Positions 7,020 through 22,018 are shown, counted from the first letter of the stretch. The stretch is DNA of 64,000 nt from a virus (IMGVR_UViG_3300017912_004409:1-64000), one strand, 5' to 3'. Notes: generated by a model from the letters alone, not told the origin. A program made the numbers and translations.

Positions 7020-7044
7020 CGTCAAGCTGGACGTTAAACGCAGC
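7020..7044 (+). ncRNA. Predicted H-type pseudoknot (PK family)
   Basis: CGTC-AA-GCTG-GACG-TTAAACG-CAGC; S1 CGTC/GACG, S2 GCTG/CAGC. Confidence 0.55.
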
Positions 7045-7072
7045 CAACACTTCGGTGAAGGACCGTGAGTTT

Positions 7073-7114
7073 GATGCTGGGCATTTGCAATCCTGCAATG
7101 TAAGTCCCAGTGTC
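7073..7114 (+). ncRNA. Bulged-hairpin motif, family E copy 1
   Basis: GATGCTGGG/CCCAGTGTC outer stem, CAT..ATG inner stem, TAAGT 3' bulge. Confidence 0.55.
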
Positions 7115-7131
7115 GTTCGCTAACTCAACTC

Positions 7132-7317
7132 ATGCGTCCTCTCACCTTCTGCCTCGTCGCCACCGCCATTGCCACCGGTATCGCCATCGGTATCGATAAG
7201 CATGTGGAGTGGATTGACCAGGCCACTGCGGAGCAGTGCTTCAACCACGACTGGCCAGCTCATCAAGAAGCTGCTCATCTCGCTTGGTGTAAGCACAACG
7301 GCTACGCAGTTCGCTGA
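7132..7317 (+). CDS. Small early protein with N-terminal signal/TM segment
   Basis: 61 aa; hydrophobic N-terminus; C..C pair. Confidence 0.65.
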   Translation: MRPLTFCLVATAIATGIAIGIDKHVEWIDQATAEQCFNHDWPAHQEAAHLAWCKHNGYAVR

Positions 7318-7387
7318 TCCGTAAAAGCGGGTTGGGAGGTGCAAACCCTCCCACAGTTATTGCCCAAAGCGGAGATGGGCACCGCAC
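7313..7387 (+). ncRNA. Structured repeat family A copy 1 (tRNA-like junction plus pseudoknot)
   Basis: 75-nt near-copy of 7607-7681 with compensatory stem changes. Confidence 0.7.
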
Positions 7388-7401
7388 AACAGGAGTTACC
7401 T

Positions 7402-7611
7402 GTGGCTAACTACACCGACTCAGCTCTCTATGCAACATCTCCTGATGCCATGGCAGATATGGAGATGGGCATTGGCATTCCTACCAGGGAAGAGCAGGGA
7501 GAAATGATCTTTCAACAGATTAGAAGTCTGATGGAAGATGGTTACTCTCAAACTCTAACTAGAGAGCATGCAGCAGAGATTGCCAACTATGCAATCAAGC
7601 TGCTTAGCTGA
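7402..7611 (+). CDS. Hypothetical early protein
   Basis: GTG start 6 nt after AGGAG; the track's extension to 7339 lies inside repeat A. Confidence 0.65.
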   Translation: MANYTDSALYATSPDAMADMEMGIGIPTREEQGEMIFQQIRSLMEDGYSQTLTREHAAEIANYAIKLLS

Positions 7612-7681
7612 TCCGTTAAAGCGGGTCCAGGGGTGCAAACCCCCTGGCAGTTATTGCCCACAGCGGAGATGGGCACCGCAC
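7607..7681 (+). ncRNA. Structured repeat family A copy 2
   Basis: See copy 1. Confidence 0.7.
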
Positions 7682-7692
7682 TCAACTACACT

Positions 7693-8103
7693 ATGATCAT
7701 GCAAACCAAGTCAAAGTTCCAGTACAGCTGGTTTCACTACGATGTAGAAGTGGGCCTCCAGGCACATGAATTCTTTACTGATGTGAATCTTCTTTGTTAT
7801 GAAGATGCACTTCGTAAAGATCACGTAGTGAGCGTTGAGCTTAGCACTCTTGCTGCATGGGAAGTACCTCCTGTTGTTTTGTTACAAGTTCTTGTATCAA
7901 GACTCTCAGGGCAAGGTTCTTTGTCAATGAAAATCACTACAGATTACGAGTACGGTCGTATCTGTGTGTTCTATTTGACACCCCATGAGAATATCACTGA
8001 TCTTTCGGACGGTGATATTACTGATCTTTTGGATCGCAAGTGTGAAGAAGCTGCAGCTAACCTAGCTACTACTCCTTCAGAAATGAAGGATCCTTGGTGG
8101 TGA
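7693..8103 (+). CDS. Hypothetical early protein
   Basis: First ATG after repeat A2; stop TGA begins repeat B1. Confidence 0.65.
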   Translation: MIMQTKSKFQYSWFHYDVEVGLQAHEFFTDVNLLCYEDALRKDHVVSVELSTLAAWEVPPVVLLQVLVSRLSGQGSLSMKITTDYEYGRICVFYLTPHENITDLSDGDITDLLDRKCEEAAANLATTPSEMKDPWW

Positions 8104-19332: not shown

Positions 19333-20112
19333 ATGGCTATTAATTCTTGTGATTTCAAACTACGTTTGGTAGATAAACCTAAACAAGTTTATATATCAGA
19401 AAGAAACTGTGCAGTTCAAGCAACTGCAATAATCCCTGCTCCTTATGATAAAGCAGTAAATACAGAAGTTAAATTAATTTATAGAGGTCCTCAAACTGCA
19501 AGAATACTTTCGTATGAACCTGGTAATTATTTGTTTGCTTGTGATACAACACTACGACATGAATATGACAAACTAACTAAAACAGATTCTTGGCGGTTGG
19601 TTACTTACAATCCCATTGAATTAGTAGATGAGAATTTTTGTCCATACAACAATGTAATTCTATTTGGAAGAATAGCTAAAGACATTGATCCAAACAATTC
19701 CATGGATCTTAAATATATTAATGATTTGATTATTTGTAATCGTCCAATCGTATGTAGTGTTGGTCCACAGCAGGGTGAATTTTTCAATATATTTGCAGTT
19801 ACTAAAGTGGATTCTCCTGGTTATAATCTTGCACAGAATCTAGCTGATCAATATACCAAAGGAACTAATGTTGTAATTAAAGGTACATTGGTAACTGATG
19901 GGTGGATTGATAAAAATACTAAAGAGCAAAGGACAAATACTAAAATCAAACTGTTAAGTATTAATAAAGCATATGTAAACAATGACAATAGTGCTGTCAA
20001 TGCTTATGTGAACAACAAGAAACAAGAGGCTGCATCTGAGCCGGTTACCATGACAGCAGGTACAATGCCTGCGTGGTCGCCCACCCAATCCAATGACGAG
20101 GTTCCTTTCTGA
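19333..20112 (+). CDS. ssb: Single-stranded DNA-binding protein, probably two OB folds
   Basis: NVILFGRIAKD...TKGTNVVIKGTLVTDGWIDKNTKEQR; acidic tail DEVPF. Confidence 0.75.
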   Translation: MAINSCDFKLRLVDKPKQVYISERNCAVQATAIIPAPYDKAVNTEVKLIYRGPQTARILSYEPGNYLFACDTTLRHEYDKLTKTDSWRLVTYNPIELVDENFCPYNNVILFGRIAKDIDPNNSMDLKYINDLIICNRPIVCSVGPQQGEFFNIFAVTKVDSPGYNLAQNLADQYTKGTNVVIKGTLVTDGWIDKNTKEQRTNTKIKLLSINKAYVNNDNSAVNAYVNNKKQEAASEPVTMTAGTMPAWSPTQSNDEVPF

Positions 20113-20297
20113 TGTCTGATTATCCGTTCACTTACCTCTATGAGGAAGATGAAAAAAAAGTCTATGTATCATGTGGTTCAGCAGATTTAACTATTGTTTT
20201 GCATAATTACATGGACTTTCTCAAAGCTGTTGGTTATGACTATATAGATATAGTCCAAGAGCTAAAAGTACTTGCTTTTGAAAAGGCGGCCAAGTAA
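20112..20297 (+). CDS. Hypothetical protein
   Basis: 61-aa ORF coupled to ssb. Confidence 0.6.
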   Translation: MSDYPFTYLYEEDEKKVYVSCGSADLTIVLHNYMDFLKAVGYDYIDIVQELKVLAFEKAAK

Positions 20298-20321
20298 TTC
20301 AGCTTTGTAACGATTGATTCA

Positions 20322-20351
20322 GGGACCTGGGATGTCCCAATAAAAGCACCA
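20322..20351 (+). ncRNA. PK-family element
   Basis: GGGAC-CTGGGAT-GTCCC-AATAAAAG-CACCA. Confidence 0.5.
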
Positions 20352-20377
20352 CTTAACATCTTTTGAACATCATTTAA

Positions 20378-21478
20378 ATGAAAACCAGCGAAGGTCTCAT
20401 TCCCGCAACCACTGGCAAAGCAATTGTCAAACGTACACCTCGTACTGTTGATAGCTTTGCTCATCTGGTAACACCAGAATACATTGGTCAGGCTCCCAAG
20501 CTTGGTCAAGTTATTGCTATCAATGCGCCTAGCGATGACAACTATCCTGCATCTAAATCTGGTTTCTTCTTATCAGAAGAACACTTTCTTAGTGCTGGAT
20601 GGAATTGTGGTTTAGATGAACTAGAAAAAGGTAGCTTTCTGCAGCCTTATGTTCAACAACTAGGTTCTTCTGAACACAAAGGTATTATGTTCTTGCGTCC
20701 ACGGATGCAGATTGTTTTTGAAACTGATGCTATCTTTGAAGAAAGAGAAGATAAAATCACAACTATTATTGGATCCGGAAATCGAAATGATAATGTAAAT
20801 GACCTCGGACGTGTAAACTATCTTTGGGAATATTACGACACCAATAAAAATAAAAAGGATCTAACAATTCGTTGTTGGTATTATTTCTACTTCATGACAA
20901 GTGAAGGTTATCGTGCTCACACTAATCCATTAATTCTTTCTATTAAAGGTGTTACCAATGCAACGTTTAGAGAAAATCTTAGAAGGTTTCGCGACGATAT
21001 GGCATCTTGCACAGCAATTGCTCATGGAGAAGCAAAGAAACCTGGAAACTTTGACGCCTTTGGTCAGTACATCTTCACCCCCAGCCTTGCATGTAAGAAA
21101 GTTGAAAACTCAACAAAGGCTTCCACAGCTGTTCAAGTTTTAGAATATGATCAACCTGTTTATTCAAGCAAAGAAGCTGCTATTGCTTCTTTGGATCTAA
21201 ATGTTATTCCAGATGAACTTATGAAGGTAACTAAGAAAGAACAATACGATGAGTTTGCAAGGGGATGTATTTCTCGTTATGGAGATCAGATATCACAATA
21301 TACACGCATGGCCCCAGGTGTTCAAATCACTCCTCTTCACATTGAGCCGCCGATGTTAAATGAAAACAATACGAATAAACTTTCTGGATCAGCCCCTACA
21401 TTACCTAGTCTTCCTGGAATTATTGATATTACAGATAAGAGAGATCCTAATACAGGAGAAGATTCAAGTCTCTTGTAA
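20378..21478 (+). CDS. Hypothetical protein, possibly DUF5895-like
   Basis: GIMFLRPRMQIV and PLILSIKG recall a cyanobacterial family often next to ssb (recollection only). Confidence 0.4.
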   Translation: MKTSEGLIPATTGKAIVKRTPRTVDSFAHLVTPEYIGQAPKLGQVIAINAPSDDNYPASKSGFFLSEEHFLSAGWNCGLDELEKGSFLQPYVQQLGSSEHKGIMFLRPRMQIVFETDAIFEEREDKITTIIGSGNRNDNVNDLGRVNYLWEYYDTNKNKKDLTIRCWYYFYFMTSEGYRAHTNPLILSIKGVTNATFRENLRRFRDDMASCTAIAHGEAKKPGNFDAFGQYIFTPSLACKKVENSTKASTAVQVLEYDQPVYSSKEAAIASLDLNVIPDELMKVTKKEQYDEFARGCISRYGDQISQYTRMAPGVQITPLHIEPPMLNENNTNKLSGSAPTLPSLPGIIDITDKRDPNTGEDSSLL

Positions 21479-21730
21479 TTAGATTTCAGGATTATCAAGC
21501 TCGCTATCTGGAATTTTTATATTCTTGGTAGCGAGCAATTCTTTTACTAATCCTCTAATACAACCTTGTCTTTGAGTAGCAAGCTGTAATAACAGCTCAG
21601 CATATTCTTTAACATTATTTATTGAACTTTCTTCTTTAATGGCTCGTGAGATTTTTTCTTTCCAAAAAAGATCACTTGTTGTTGGAGATAATTCTAGCTT
21701 TTTCAAAGAAGATTTAAATACAAATTCCAT
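21479..21730 (-). CDS. Possible divergent NblA-like protein
   Basis: LELSPTTSDLFWKEKISRAI...KEYAELLLQLATQRQGCIRGLVKE has NblA-like two-helix spacing. Confidence 0.35.
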   Translation of the reverse strand: MEFVFKSSLKKLELSPTTSDLFWKEKISRAIKEESSINNVKEYAELLLQLATQRQGCIRGLVKELLATKNIKIPDSELDNPEI

Positions 21731-21764
21731 AAATCCATTTGAGTTCTATTTAATCTATCACAAA

Positions 21765-21986
21765 ATGATTTCAATGAAACCCCATTCTTCTTCCACTAAA
21801 ATCAAAAAATCAATTAAGAAAACAATTCCTTTTGCTGTTCTTGGTACAGCTGTAGCTATTACTATAGGAAATCCAGTGGCATGGGGTGCTCTTGCTTTTG
21901 GTTTGTTTCGAATTACTAAGAGAAACTACAACAGCCTTGATCCCTATGATACGCTTGGCTCAGACGAACAAAGCCTCTTCATCTGA
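21765..21986 (+). CDS. Small membrane protein
   Basis: IPFAVLGTAVAITIGNPVAWGALAFGLF. Confidence 0.55.
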   Translation: MISMKPHSSSTKIKKSIKKTIPFAVLGTAVAITIGNPVAWGALAFGLFRITKRNYNSLDPYDTLGSDEQSLFI

Positions 21987-21990
21987 TCAT

Positions 21991-22018
21991 TGACCTGGGA
22001 AGTCATTAAACTCATCCG
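21991..22018 (+). ncRNA. PK-family element
   Basis: TGAC-CTGGGAA-GTCA-TTAAAC-TCATCCG. Confidence 0.6.

Follow-up and report, generated by a model that had tools for sequence, protein, structure and literature searches.

The window, the whole 64,000-nucleotide stretch analysed, comes from a 74.7-kb phage that is related to Synechococcus phage S-EIV1, and carries seven short elements on its + strand between positions 7020 and 22018, one of them ahead of a GP88-like gene and another ahead of a DUF5895 gene. All seven had been listed, with their S1 arms, in an initial annotation, and all are present. The knot that they represent is about 28-34 nt long. A hairpin stem of 4-6 bp (S1) closes a loop of 6-9 nt, and this loop pairs with the bases directly 3' of a near-invariant (U)UAAAC linker to form a second stem (S2), the junction loops being one base each (L1 = C, L2 = U). 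The consensus is NNNC/GNNN for S1 (4-6 bp), U-R-R-R-Y-A for S2a, N-UAAAC for the linker and U-R-Y-Y-Y-A for S2b. Across phyla, some 12 bases that are unpaired or at the junction hardly vary, and the sequence 3' of S2b is variable, with nothing conserved beyond it.

The window copies are single and 0.8-5 kb apart. Copy 4 (11235-11262), CGUC-C-UGAGCA-U-GACG-UUAAAC-UGCUUA, is canonical and scores 48.6 bits (E = 1.5e-10) against model R1, to whose seed it belongs; it ends 20 nt before the ATG at 11283. Copy 1 (7020-7044), a short-S2 variant that heads the + strand early cluster, with the next ORF 87 nt away, pairs 7020-7023 with 7030-7033 in S1 and GCUG (7026-7029) with CAGC (7041-7044) in S2, the linker UUAAAC occupying 7034-7039. 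Model R1 matches it only over S1b and the linker, and in relatives with the same 6-nt loop GCUG stays paired to YAGC (G-C or G.U). Copies 2 (9421-9447) and 3 (10233-10259) have the same sequence over about 30 nt and therefore count only once for covariation. In this divergent variant S1 is AGGG (9421-9424 in copy 2) with UCCU (9434-9437), the linker is AUAAA, and S2 is CUGCG (9427-9431) with CGCAG (9443-9447); the shared layout is the one feature that suggests its membership. Copy 2 lies between the stop at 9414 and the ATG at 9472, 6 nt from the former and 24 nt from the latter; for copy 3 the gaps are 10 nt from the stop at 10222 and 26 nt to the ATG at 10286.

Copy 5 (16220-16249), which has the CUGGGAU loop and precedes the GP88-like gene, pairs 16220-16225 with 16233-16238 in S1 and UGGG (16227-16230) with UCCA (16246-16249) in S2, and also A16231 with U16243. 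The ATG at 16271 follows 21 nt downstream of the copy, which matches model R1 from outside the seed (E = 0.0016) and has a 27-nt core that is kept in 40 IMG/VR contigs and in the T4-like cyanophage S-H68. Copy 6 (20322-20351), 26 nt before the ATG at 20378 of the DUF5895 gene, is the weakest: S1 pairs GGGAC (20322-20326) with GUCCC (20334-20338), AAUAAAAG serves as linker, S2 is limited to UGG with CCA (20349-20351), and there is no model R1 match at E<=10. Its sub-variant, UAAAAGCA(Y)CC, is seen again in other contigs (L028, L031). Copy 7 (21991-22018; model R1 E = 0.84) has a CUGGGAA loop, UGAC (21991-21994) with GUCA (22002-22005) in S1, the linker UUAAAC (22006-22011), and GGG/GGA with UCC (22015-22017) in S2; it is separated by 4 nt from the stop at 21986 and by 24 nt from the ATG at 22042. 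For the CUGGGAU-loop copies (16220, 21991 and 20322) the S2 register of the covariance model differs from the TGG/CCR of the initial annotation, the model setting UGGG against UCCA and the loop A against the U after UAAAC, with a CA bulge. This revised register is backed by one relative in which G-C is replaced on both sides by A-U, its loop CUGAGAU facing UUCA.

The reading of these elements as H-type RNA pseudoknots in which both stems covary proved sound. When a pattern scan left four S2-core bases free, imposing no pairing, more than 113 IMG/VR contigs matched, against about 0.4 expected by chance on a rough estimate, and all four free positions were paired in 94 of 115 distinct copies, a set not pre-selected for pairing. 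A gap-free alignment of 83 sequences, which was so pre-selected, has changes on both sides in 8 of 10 pairs and a covariation score that none of 500 shuffles reached. S1 pairing and S2 pairing co-occur in a contingency table, and the canonical form with compensated S2 is found in more than 100 contigs. Pooled over the pairs there are 472 Watson-Crick, 75 G.U and 11 A.C combinations; the excess of G.U over A.C assigns the fold to the sense-strand RNA and not to the DNA. It is near certain that the UAAAC-type knot is a family of sense-strand RNA H-type pseudoknots.

Within the genome the enrichment is no more than moderate. With a generic descriptor the + strand yields 12 hits and the - strand 1, in keeping with the multi-copy, sense-oriented arrangement first described for the early region, compared with 4.9 +/- 2.0 hits in 100 Markov-1 simulated genomes. 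The decisive evidence is the cross-genome comparison, not this single-genome enrichment. In line with the initial annotation, which could not match the knot to a named family, none in Rfam 15 matches it, either at the gathering score or at E<=10. Judged by their sequences, the seven window elements are genuine members of an uncatalogued family of small RNA pseudoknots, which many unrelated phages carry in intergenic mRNA.

The position of the knot relative to genes is constrained on both sides. Between the stop codon and S1 the gap is sharply bounded at 5 nt, with 43 of 126 copies at exactly 5, one at 4, one overlapping the stop (-2), and none between. From S2 to the ATG the distance is bounded at 19 nt, 57 of 133 copies falling at 19-22 nt, these in S-EIV1-like phages, where the ATG lies either 19-22 nt or 26-28 nt 3' of the knot. 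The knot thus lies just outside the ribosome footprints of the upstream stop and the downstream start. In the window, six of the seven copies had been placed 21-27 nt before a start codon, which is essentially right (20-26 nt counted by hand, and 87 nt for 7020). A fixed start distance holds in the compact S-EIV1-like phages, which lack Shine-Dalgarno sequences, but not elsewhere; in unrelated phages the lower bound between stop and knot is again 4-5 nt, and the start distance is dispersed over 10-263 nt. The knot is therefore not strictly linked to starts, and what holds more generally is a minimum of 4-5 nt past the upstream stop. Neither flank is obligatory, given that 7020 and 11235 head clusters of genes without an upstream ORF (11235 has no same-strand gene upstream), and that in Labelle and at locus L184 the knot lies 3' of a gene with no start nearby. 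While the knot genes do lack a Shine-Dalgarno sequence, as the initial annotation had it, this is not special to them but holds for the whole phage. The leader between knot and ATG in S-EIV1-like phages is only about 5% G, and consequently holds no competing starts or structure. Neighbouring intergenic gaps of the window carry other stable structures and tRNAs.

S-EIV1 and five complete relatives have 4-9 knots each, all on the early-gene strand, and the knot occurs in about 137 records of cultured phages. Among its carriers are cyanophages, mycobacteriophages, and phages of Staphylococcus aureus and Vibrio, and the hosts span cyanobacteria, Firmicutes, Actinobacteria, and alpha- and gamma-proteobacteria. 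This argues against a module specific to the one genome, and against the site for one phage regulator that the initial annotation had offered among its readings. GTDB genomes contributed 28 stretches with the knot, mostly Firmicutes prophages, and it was not found in any of the 5,426 E. coli genomes searched. Of 195 knot loci, 93 are related to the window and the remainder are unrelated; the knot is an autonomous module, carried by phages without shared proteins. The downstream genes (PcfJ-like, SSB, GP88, scaffold, DUF5895) are mutually unrelated, SSB accounting for 14 of 140 and capsid scaffold for 13. One knot of S-EIV1 precedes the SSB gene, and in Firmicutes prophages the knot precedes the capsid-scaffold gene. 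At eight prophage knot loci before PF06810 or DUF4355 genes, GP20-a and GP20-b (RF02991, RF03003) gave no hit at E<=0.1. Tandem knots are found at five loci (L027, L042, L077, L116 and L174).

We tentatively propose that the knot is a putative, constitutively folded barrier between cistrons, one that sets the limits of mRNA decay or processing. It would be an autonomous and always folded module marking a boundary within polycistronic phage mRNA, and, because neither the footprint of a ribosome ending translation of the upstream gene nor that of one starting on the downstream gene would reach it, translation might never unwind it. The three linker adenines should dock in the S1 minor groove, by analogy with the AAA of the pistol ribozyme, to give a compact, mechanically stable knot. 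Such a knot could stop exonucleases, 5'->3' of the RNase J type and/or 3'->5' of the PNPase type, or could define a processing end; the stability of neighbouring cistrons would be uncoupled, and genes needed in bulk (SSB, capsid scaffold) would be expressed more. Both the nuclease blocking and any effect on expression are what we infer from the observed fold, strand, spacing and distribution.

The edges of the stop and start spacing, which would leave the knot folded between ribosomes, speak for a barrier, tandem copies are as expected of roadblocks, the SSB and scaffold genes downstream are taken to be needed in bulk, and the structures and tRNAs of nearby window gaps fit a punctuated processing of the early transcript. 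There is a documented case for 5'->3' exonucleases being halted by structured RNAs without proteins (PMC5760640). On the other hand, a plain roadblock needs no 12 or so near-invariant bases, and these point to a partner, a ligand or catalysis. Simple H-type knots are not known to resist exonucleases in the manner of ring-shaped xrRNAs. Nor is Vibrio known to have RNase J, and a model that relies purely on this enzyme therefore breaks down for the Vibrio phages that carry the knot. In Enterococcus prophages, moreover, the knot lies directly 3' of a terminator-like hairpin, a neighbour that a 3'-end protector would not require. The xrRNAs of flaviviruses and plant viruses are likewise protein-free folds, often duplicated, that define RNA ends by stalling exonucleases, and those of plant viruses sit in intergenic regions. 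They differ in forming a ring around the 5' end, in their 45-70 nt and in acting against Xrn1; the knot is likened to them by its position, and we know of no phage xrRNA.

The conserved loop and junction bases might instead suggest specific recognition, and thus a knot that binds or decoys some trans-acting protein, whether a translational repressor of the RegA/gp32 kind in T4, a host factor, or, with the knot as a type III antitoxin mimic that neutralises them, the ToxN/AbiQ-like abortive-infection RNases. Early transcripts carry several copies, some in tandem, and SSB genes are frequent neighbours, which recalls gene 32 of T4. The knot in the T4/T2 gene 32 mRNA is also a compact H-type fold in a phage 5' leader, followed by unstructured leader to the start, but it is gene-specific and nucleates the binding of its own product, whereas the UAAAC knot precedes many unrelated genes, at 4-9 per genome, and occurs also without a following start; with SSB so small a share of the downstream genes, and a tRNA rather than a knot ahead of the window's own SSB gene, an SSB autoregulatory knot of this type was rejected. 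Type III antitoxins, common in Firmicutes, consist of H-type pseudoknot units of 34-45 nt, and phages evade ToxIN through RNA mimicry (PMC5086642). ToxI, AntiQ and CptI share the short L1 and A-rich linker, but form tandem arrays beside a toxin gene, with A-rich sites at the flanks where they are cut, while UAAAC knots are single or rarely double, lie inside mRNAs with no adjoining toxin gene, and have no conserved A-rich cleavage site at their flanks. No ToxN-family gene was among the tallied downstream genes, and given also the wide spacing of the window copies we rejected a type III antitoxin RNA. Since the S-EIV1-like loci and the compared Firmicutes prophage flanks share no protein, any partner must be universal or equally mobile, and a protein site appears rather unlikely. 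A translation-initiation enhancer or 'ruler', with the knot on or against the 30S platform and the P site about 20 nt downstream in a G-poor, Shine-Dalgarno-less leader, would account for the start spacing and the open leader of S-EIV1-like phages. However, the distance runs from 12 to 105 nt or more in hosts that use Shine-Dalgarno sequences, a start is missing altogether downstream of some copies, G-poor leaders also stand ahead of knot-less genes of the same phage, and the distribution of distances resembles a lower bound and not an optimum, and we hold this role to be unlikely.

It is improbable that the knot is a minimal self-cleaving ribozyme or nuclease-guiding structure, a relative of the pistol P1-pseudoknot core that cuts polycistronic phage RNA between genes, although the building plan is the same. 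Pistol (RF02679) has a stem of about 5 bp, a six-base-pair pseudoknot made by the loop of this hairpin, UUAAAU (UUAAAC in the knot) after the 3' strand of the stem, with a conserved AAA that forms A-minor triples in the minor groove of P1, and the same habitat in Firmicutes near phage genes (PMC6154101, PMC6101554). The conservation of the knot is ribozyme-typical and its copies are intergenic, sometimes tandem. In pistol, however, the pseudoknot strand comes about 12 nt after the linker, with the P2 strand and an internal loop in between, and is followed by P2, P3 and a G-U cleavage site, whereas in the knot S2b stands immediately 3' of UAAAC. With P2/P3 and the G-U junction missing, and no RF02679 hit at the gathering score or at E<=10, pistol itself was rejected; we know of no natural self-cleaver as small as the knot would be, at about 28 nt. 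The ligand switch raised by the initial annotation has very little probability. A riboswitch-like aptamer could have the small H-type topology, the size and the conserved junction bases of preQ1-I (RF00522), in which an A-rich linker likewise crosses S1, but one-base L1 and L2 leave little room for a pocket, the putative regulated genes are unrelated, and S2b is variable and mostly clear of the ribosome-binding site, with no terminator following; in one Firmicutes copy (L172) a GGAGG-like stretch does begin at the final S2b base. PreQ1-I was rejected, there being no hit at E<=10, no association with que or other queuosine-pathway genes downstream, no Shine-Dalgarno sequestration, and a start at least 19 nt past S2 in S-EIV1-like phages and farther away or missing in most other copies. 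Luteovirus frameshift knots have the same topology, with an L1 of one to two bases starting with C and a single junction U, but UAAAC knots lie outside ORFs and have no upstream slippery site. We give hardly any credence to the already disfavoured DNA-level hairpin promoter with UAAAC as its -10 box, the case that the initial annotation named as its own refutation. TAAACT does resemble TAnnnT in 3 of 7 copies, and the site is annotated as 'promoter' in the deposited record of S. aureus phage B166 (a BPROM prediction), but S2 covaries and pairs the very bases flanking the supposed -10, and the pairing is strand-specific. There was no conserved -35 or -10 upstream of the knots and no sigma-70-like prediction at the seven sites, promoter-like counts equalled those of shuffles, and no T7-type RNA polymerase gene was found; a sigma-70 or N4-type hairpin promoter, the latter with a 3-nt loop, was rejected on these grounds and on the size of the knot loops.

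The SAS/ESAS elements of Cluster K mycobacteriophages, whose function is unknown, are likewise multi-copy, in one orientation, in the non-structural half of the genome and beside starts (PMC3203893). SAS is a 13-bp sequence motif of one cluster that lies 3-7 bp from the start and overlaps the ribosome-binding site (PMC3203893), whereas the UAAAC knot is a covarying structure found across phyla.

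The window comprises bases 1-64000 of an IMG/VR phage record of 74,718 bp, which carries direct terminal repeats and has a G+C content of 36%; its closest isolate is Synechococcus phage S-EIV1 (KJ410740; the family A DNA polymerases are 64% identical). Small early and replication genes, among them those for PcfJ-like and GP88-like proteins, DNA polymerase, SSB and DUF5895, occupy 7-26 kb on the + strand, with primase further on. The initial annotation had placed seven H-type pseudoknots with a conserved TAAAC element at 7020, 9421, 10233, 11235, 16220, 20322 and 21991. We found all seven in the window sequence at these positions and with the hairpin stem (S1) arms as described, the copies at 9421 and 10233 being identical in sequence. 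Six of the seven end 20-26 nt 5' of an in-frame ATG, much as had been claimed, while the copy at 7020 lies 87 nt from the next ORF; the Shine-Dalgarno sequence said to be missing is indeed absent at these starts, but this is general for the start codons of the window, whose leaders are G-poor. The signal from this genome alone is modest: a generic descriptor (hairpin, UAAA(A/C) and a pseudoknot stem, S2) matched 12 times on the + strand and once on the - strand, compared with 4.9 +/- 2.0 in simulated genomes.

Far stronger evidence for an RNA fold came from other phage sequences. The loop variant of the copies of the 16220 type (the CUGGGAU form) matched 40 IMG/VR contigs, in nearly all of which a core of ~27 nt is conserved; beyond the core the flanks differ between contigs, as does the outer S1 pair, which covaries. 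A descriptor scan of these loci revealed many extra copies whose loop is 8 nt long, the six bases that follow its C being complementary to the six bases directly 3' of UAAAC. An unbiased pattern, with S1, the loop ends and the linker fixed but the four bases at the centre of S2, and those opposite them, left free, matched more than 113 IMG/VR contigs where, by a rough estimate, less than one would be expected by chance. Among the matches listed, all four free positions were paired in 94 of 115 distinct copies, with many pair types; fully paired types made up 63%, against a mean of 26% and a maximum of 43% in 1,000 partner shuffles. With genome matches added, the free positions held 472 Watson-Crick, 75 G.U, 11 A.C and 22 other combinations, and the excess of G.U over A.C indicates that the molecule that pairs is the sense-strand RNA. 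Full S1 and full S2 pairing co-occur massively over all 7,946 UAAA(A/C) sites in the fetched loci, and in a gap-free alignment of 83 distinct copies, pre-selected for pairing, 8 of the 10 pairs changed on both sides, with no shuffle or slid register coming near. The covariation of S1 and S2 noted within the window holds across genomes.

The consensus is a classical H-type pseudoknot. S1 has 4-6 bp with an invariant C-G pair closing the loop; the one-base junction loops are C (L1) and U (L2); the loop strand of S2 reads U-R-R-R-Y-A and its partner, 3' of the linker, U-R-Y-Y-Y-A; and in the linker, N-UAAAC, UAAA is invariant and the C is present in 98%. In this fold S2, with its six pairs, has a single base spanning its deep groove, and the minor groove of S1 is spanned by an A-rich strand of six bases. 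Because MAFFT alignment of the seven copies with their relatives misplaced the 5' arms where loop length differed, we built a covariance model from the gap-free 8-nt-loop form only. This model independently recovered the window copy at 16219 (E 0.0016) and fitted the CUGGGAU form to the same knot, given a one-base deletion in the loop strand of S2 and a CA bulge in the opposite strand; this changes the S2 originally proposed for these copies. The copies at 7020 (6-nt loop) and at 9421 and 10233 (9-nt loop) are variants with an S2 of 4-5 pairs and a two-base L1, and the 6-nt-loop relatives of the 7020 copy keep GCUG paired with YAGC.

As the initial annotation had it, no named family accounts for these elements. 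Searches of Rfam 15 returned only tRNAs and noise, with no family for the knot at gathering score or E<=10 for the region, or at E<=0.1 for eight prophage loci; the models of preQ1-I, GP20-a/b, STAXI and the other families gave no match. Nor did we find a published description in the literature on cyanophages, prophages and scaffold genes, S. aureus prophages, or xrRNA and RNase J; a catalogue of ~10,000 candidate viral RNAs (PMC10690425) may contain it. The knot is a new, widespread RNA family of a known general kind, the cis-acting mRNA pseudoknot; the original observation is confirmed and much extended, and its interpretation as a cis-regulatory RNA module that would enhance translation, stabilise 5' ends or bind a phage regulator or ligand is partly supported.

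The nearest documented structural analogue appears to be the pistol ribozyme, which occurs close to phage genes in Firmicutes: in its core the loop of a 5-bp P1 makes a six-pair pseudoknot and P1 is followed by UUAAAU, the three adenines of which form A-minor triples with P1 (PMC6154101, PMC6101554). Pistol is defined by P2, P3 and the cleavage junction; all are absent from the knot, and the Rfam model gives no match, so that the knot cannot be classed as a pistol ribozyme. A hatchet ribozyme construct (PMC6101554) also contains GACGUUAAAA, so that the 3' strand of a stem followed by UUAAA recurs in pistol, hatchet and the knot, and may be a structural building block common to phage-borne RNAs. 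It is conceivable, if improbable, that the knot is related to the pistol core in a pared-down form, and that it either cuts polycistronic phage RNA between genes itself or guides a universal nuclease to do so. Were this so, no natural RNA that cleaves or marks itself would be smaller, and the knot would be a module resembling the common ancestor of phage-borne ribozymes. A hammerhead core was rejected, since the CUGA-like bases covary as part of S2 and so do not form a catalytic core.

The distribution of the knot is broad. The early strand of S-EIV1 has at least six copies, some of them 5' of the GP88, SSB and DUF5895 homologues, and five complete relatives have 4-9 copies each, always on a single strand and clustered within 13-20 kb. 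T4-like cyanophages have one copy of the CUGGGAU form, which in S-H68 lies ~10 nt past a stop codon and opens a non-coding stretch of 270 nt. Of the 195 fetched loci, about half have no protein in common with the window. The same pattern matched 28 stretches in GTDB genomes (Enterococcus, Ruminococcus, Finegoldia, Selenomonadaceae, Peptostreptococcaceae, phytoplasma, Saccharibacteria, Anaerolineales and Bacteroidetes), with S2 compensated in these copies and a capsid-scaffold gene downstream in 7 of 10 tested. Over all loci, the downstream genes included PcfJ-like (22), SSB (14), scaffold (13), GP88 (12) and DUF5895 (7). A 34-nt query matched 137 cultured-phage records, 83 from S. aureus phages and 27 from Vibrio phages, the other hosts being Microcystis, Nostoc, Synechococcus, Lactobacillus, Moorella, Mycobacterium, Arthrobacter, Paracoccus, Bacillus and Geobacillus; at the same sensitivity the knot was not found in 5,426 complete E. 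coli genomes. Three of the 137 records were inspected: S. aureus phage B166 has the knot between a head-morphogenesis gene and the scaffold gene, Vibrio phage D456 has a good knot with a different S1, and in Mycobacterium phage Labelle it lies 6 nt past a stop codon with the linker AAAAAC, followed by 190 nt and a tRNA. In one of the 28 GTDB stretches, from a Bradymonadales MAG (L170, ~1760-1860), the canonical sequence is a CRISPR spacer between two identical repeats of ~33 nt, indicating that a knot-bearing phage has been targeted by a deltaproteobacterium-like host. In an Enterococcus lactis prophage (L169, 5400-5470, minus strand), a terminator-like hairpin and U run stand directly 5' of the knot, and 3' of it a second hairpin (CGUGG...CCACG) and UAAAAU immediately precede the Shine-Dalgarno sequence of the scaffold gene.

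The placement of the knot relative to codons has sharp edges. In S-EIV1-like contigs the gap from stop codon to S1 (n=126) is exactly 5 nt in 43 cases, 4 nt in one and an overlap (-2) in one, so that there is a hard lower edge with larger gaps tailing off. Between S2 and the ATG the edge falls at 19 nt, with 57 of 133 copies at 19-22 nt, a second group at 26-28 nt, and ~5% G in the leader. Duplexes beginning ~11-12 nt past the P site stay intact, and the footprint of an initiating ribosome reaches ~20 nt 5' of the start codon; the edges lie where the structure just escapes unwinding by terminating and initiating ribosomes, and would amount to an in vivo read-out of the footprint at both codons. 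Unrelated phages keep the same minimum of 4-5 nt past the stop codon, but their next starts follow at widely scattered distances (median 53 nt), and in a Bacilli phage-like contig the knot lies 12-24 nt after genes and 115-230 nt before the next. The association with start codons initially described is therefore not a strict one, and we infer that the knot is an autonomous intergenic module, permanently folded.

A knot permanently folded between genes might act as a boundary for mRNA decay or processing, and would thereby insulate neighbouring cistrons. We favour this reading, though tentatively: consistent with it are the obligatory folded state, the immateriality of which flank bears the gene, the bulk-expression genes nearby, the other stable hairpins and embedded tRNAs of the same early transcript, and the tandem or overlapping pairs of knots at five loci (L077, L116, L174, L027 and L042), in one of which (L174) the final base of the first S2 is the first base of the second S1. 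Against it, the near-invariance of unpaired bases across phyla requires a partner or chemistry that is specific, and copies in Vibrio phages weaken a strictly RNase J-based version. The rivals are a target or decoy for a protein (mimicry of type III antitoxin RNA among the possibilities), a riboswitch, the pistol-related ribozyme, and a translation enhancer or ruler.

Several further readings were rejected. A cyanobacterial host-specific factor is at odds with copies in phages of Firmicutes, Mollicutes, Actinobacteria, Paracoccus and Vibrio. CCA follows S2 in 14 of 200 copies and is not enriched, which speaks against a tRNA-like or RNase P mimic with a 3' CCA, and a frameshift or readthrough signal is contradicted by the absence of an upstream slippery site, the use of all three stop codons and the lack of a preferred downstream frame. 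The initial annotation had also allowed for a -10 box in a DNA hairpin promoter; no promoter-like signal was found 5' of the knot and the pairing is specific to the sense strand, which effectively excludes this. Pfam and PHROGs scans of 30 early-region proteins detected no sigma factor, RNA polymerase or RNA-binding family, and the T7-like RNA polymerase model (PF00940) had no match in the genome, a negative of little weight since control genomes gave no match either.

Very few structured RNA classes are common to phages of cyanobacteria, Firmicutes, Actinobacteria and Proteobacteria, and this one is tiny, multi-copy in some genomes, strongly supported by covariation and absent from Rfam. Whatever its role, whether it bars decay, serves translation, decoys a protein or is related to a ribozyme, the knot would be a portable ~30-nt module with which phages organise the expression of polycistronic mRNA, and it could serve as an insulator part in synthetic operons. 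Its presence in S. aureus phietaviruses, a Mycobacterium smegmatis phage and cultured S-EIV1 makes its function directly testable.

Other structures populate the early region of the window. Intercistronic gaps of the + strand operon hold tRNA-Leu (14292-14367) and tRNA-Arg (19205-19279), the latter beginning with the base directly after the DNA polymerase stop codon, upstream of SSB, where S-EIV1 has a knot copy. A second repeated intergenic element (8104-8174, 8642-8716 and ~9011) consists of a cUNCGg-type tetraloop hairpin followed by a GCAGGA...UCCUGC hairpin; the tetraloop stem is rewritten between copies (GCCCC-UUCG-GGGGU versus GGGGC-UACG-GCCCU), and the element seems to be a further family of RNA-level structures in this early transcript. 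A third family, a bulged hairpin CUGGGCAU...UGUAAGUCCCAG, occurs at 7078-7113 and 12467-12497 and 5' of GP88 homologues in two fetched loci (L002, L003); in some relatives it takes the pre-GP88 position held by the knot in the window, so that structured modules seem interchangeable at this site. In six apparently G+C-richer loci (L006-L011) the knot is replaced there by a conserved GUGGCACAAG box that precedes a G+C-rich hairpin and UAAAAU/AGAAAU; together these may form an element that is analogous to the knot yet distinct from it. Finally, two direct repeats of ~65 nt at 6750-6860, with G+C above their surroundings, lie within a 978-bp non-coding region that separates divergent gene blocks, and may mark an origin or regulatory region.
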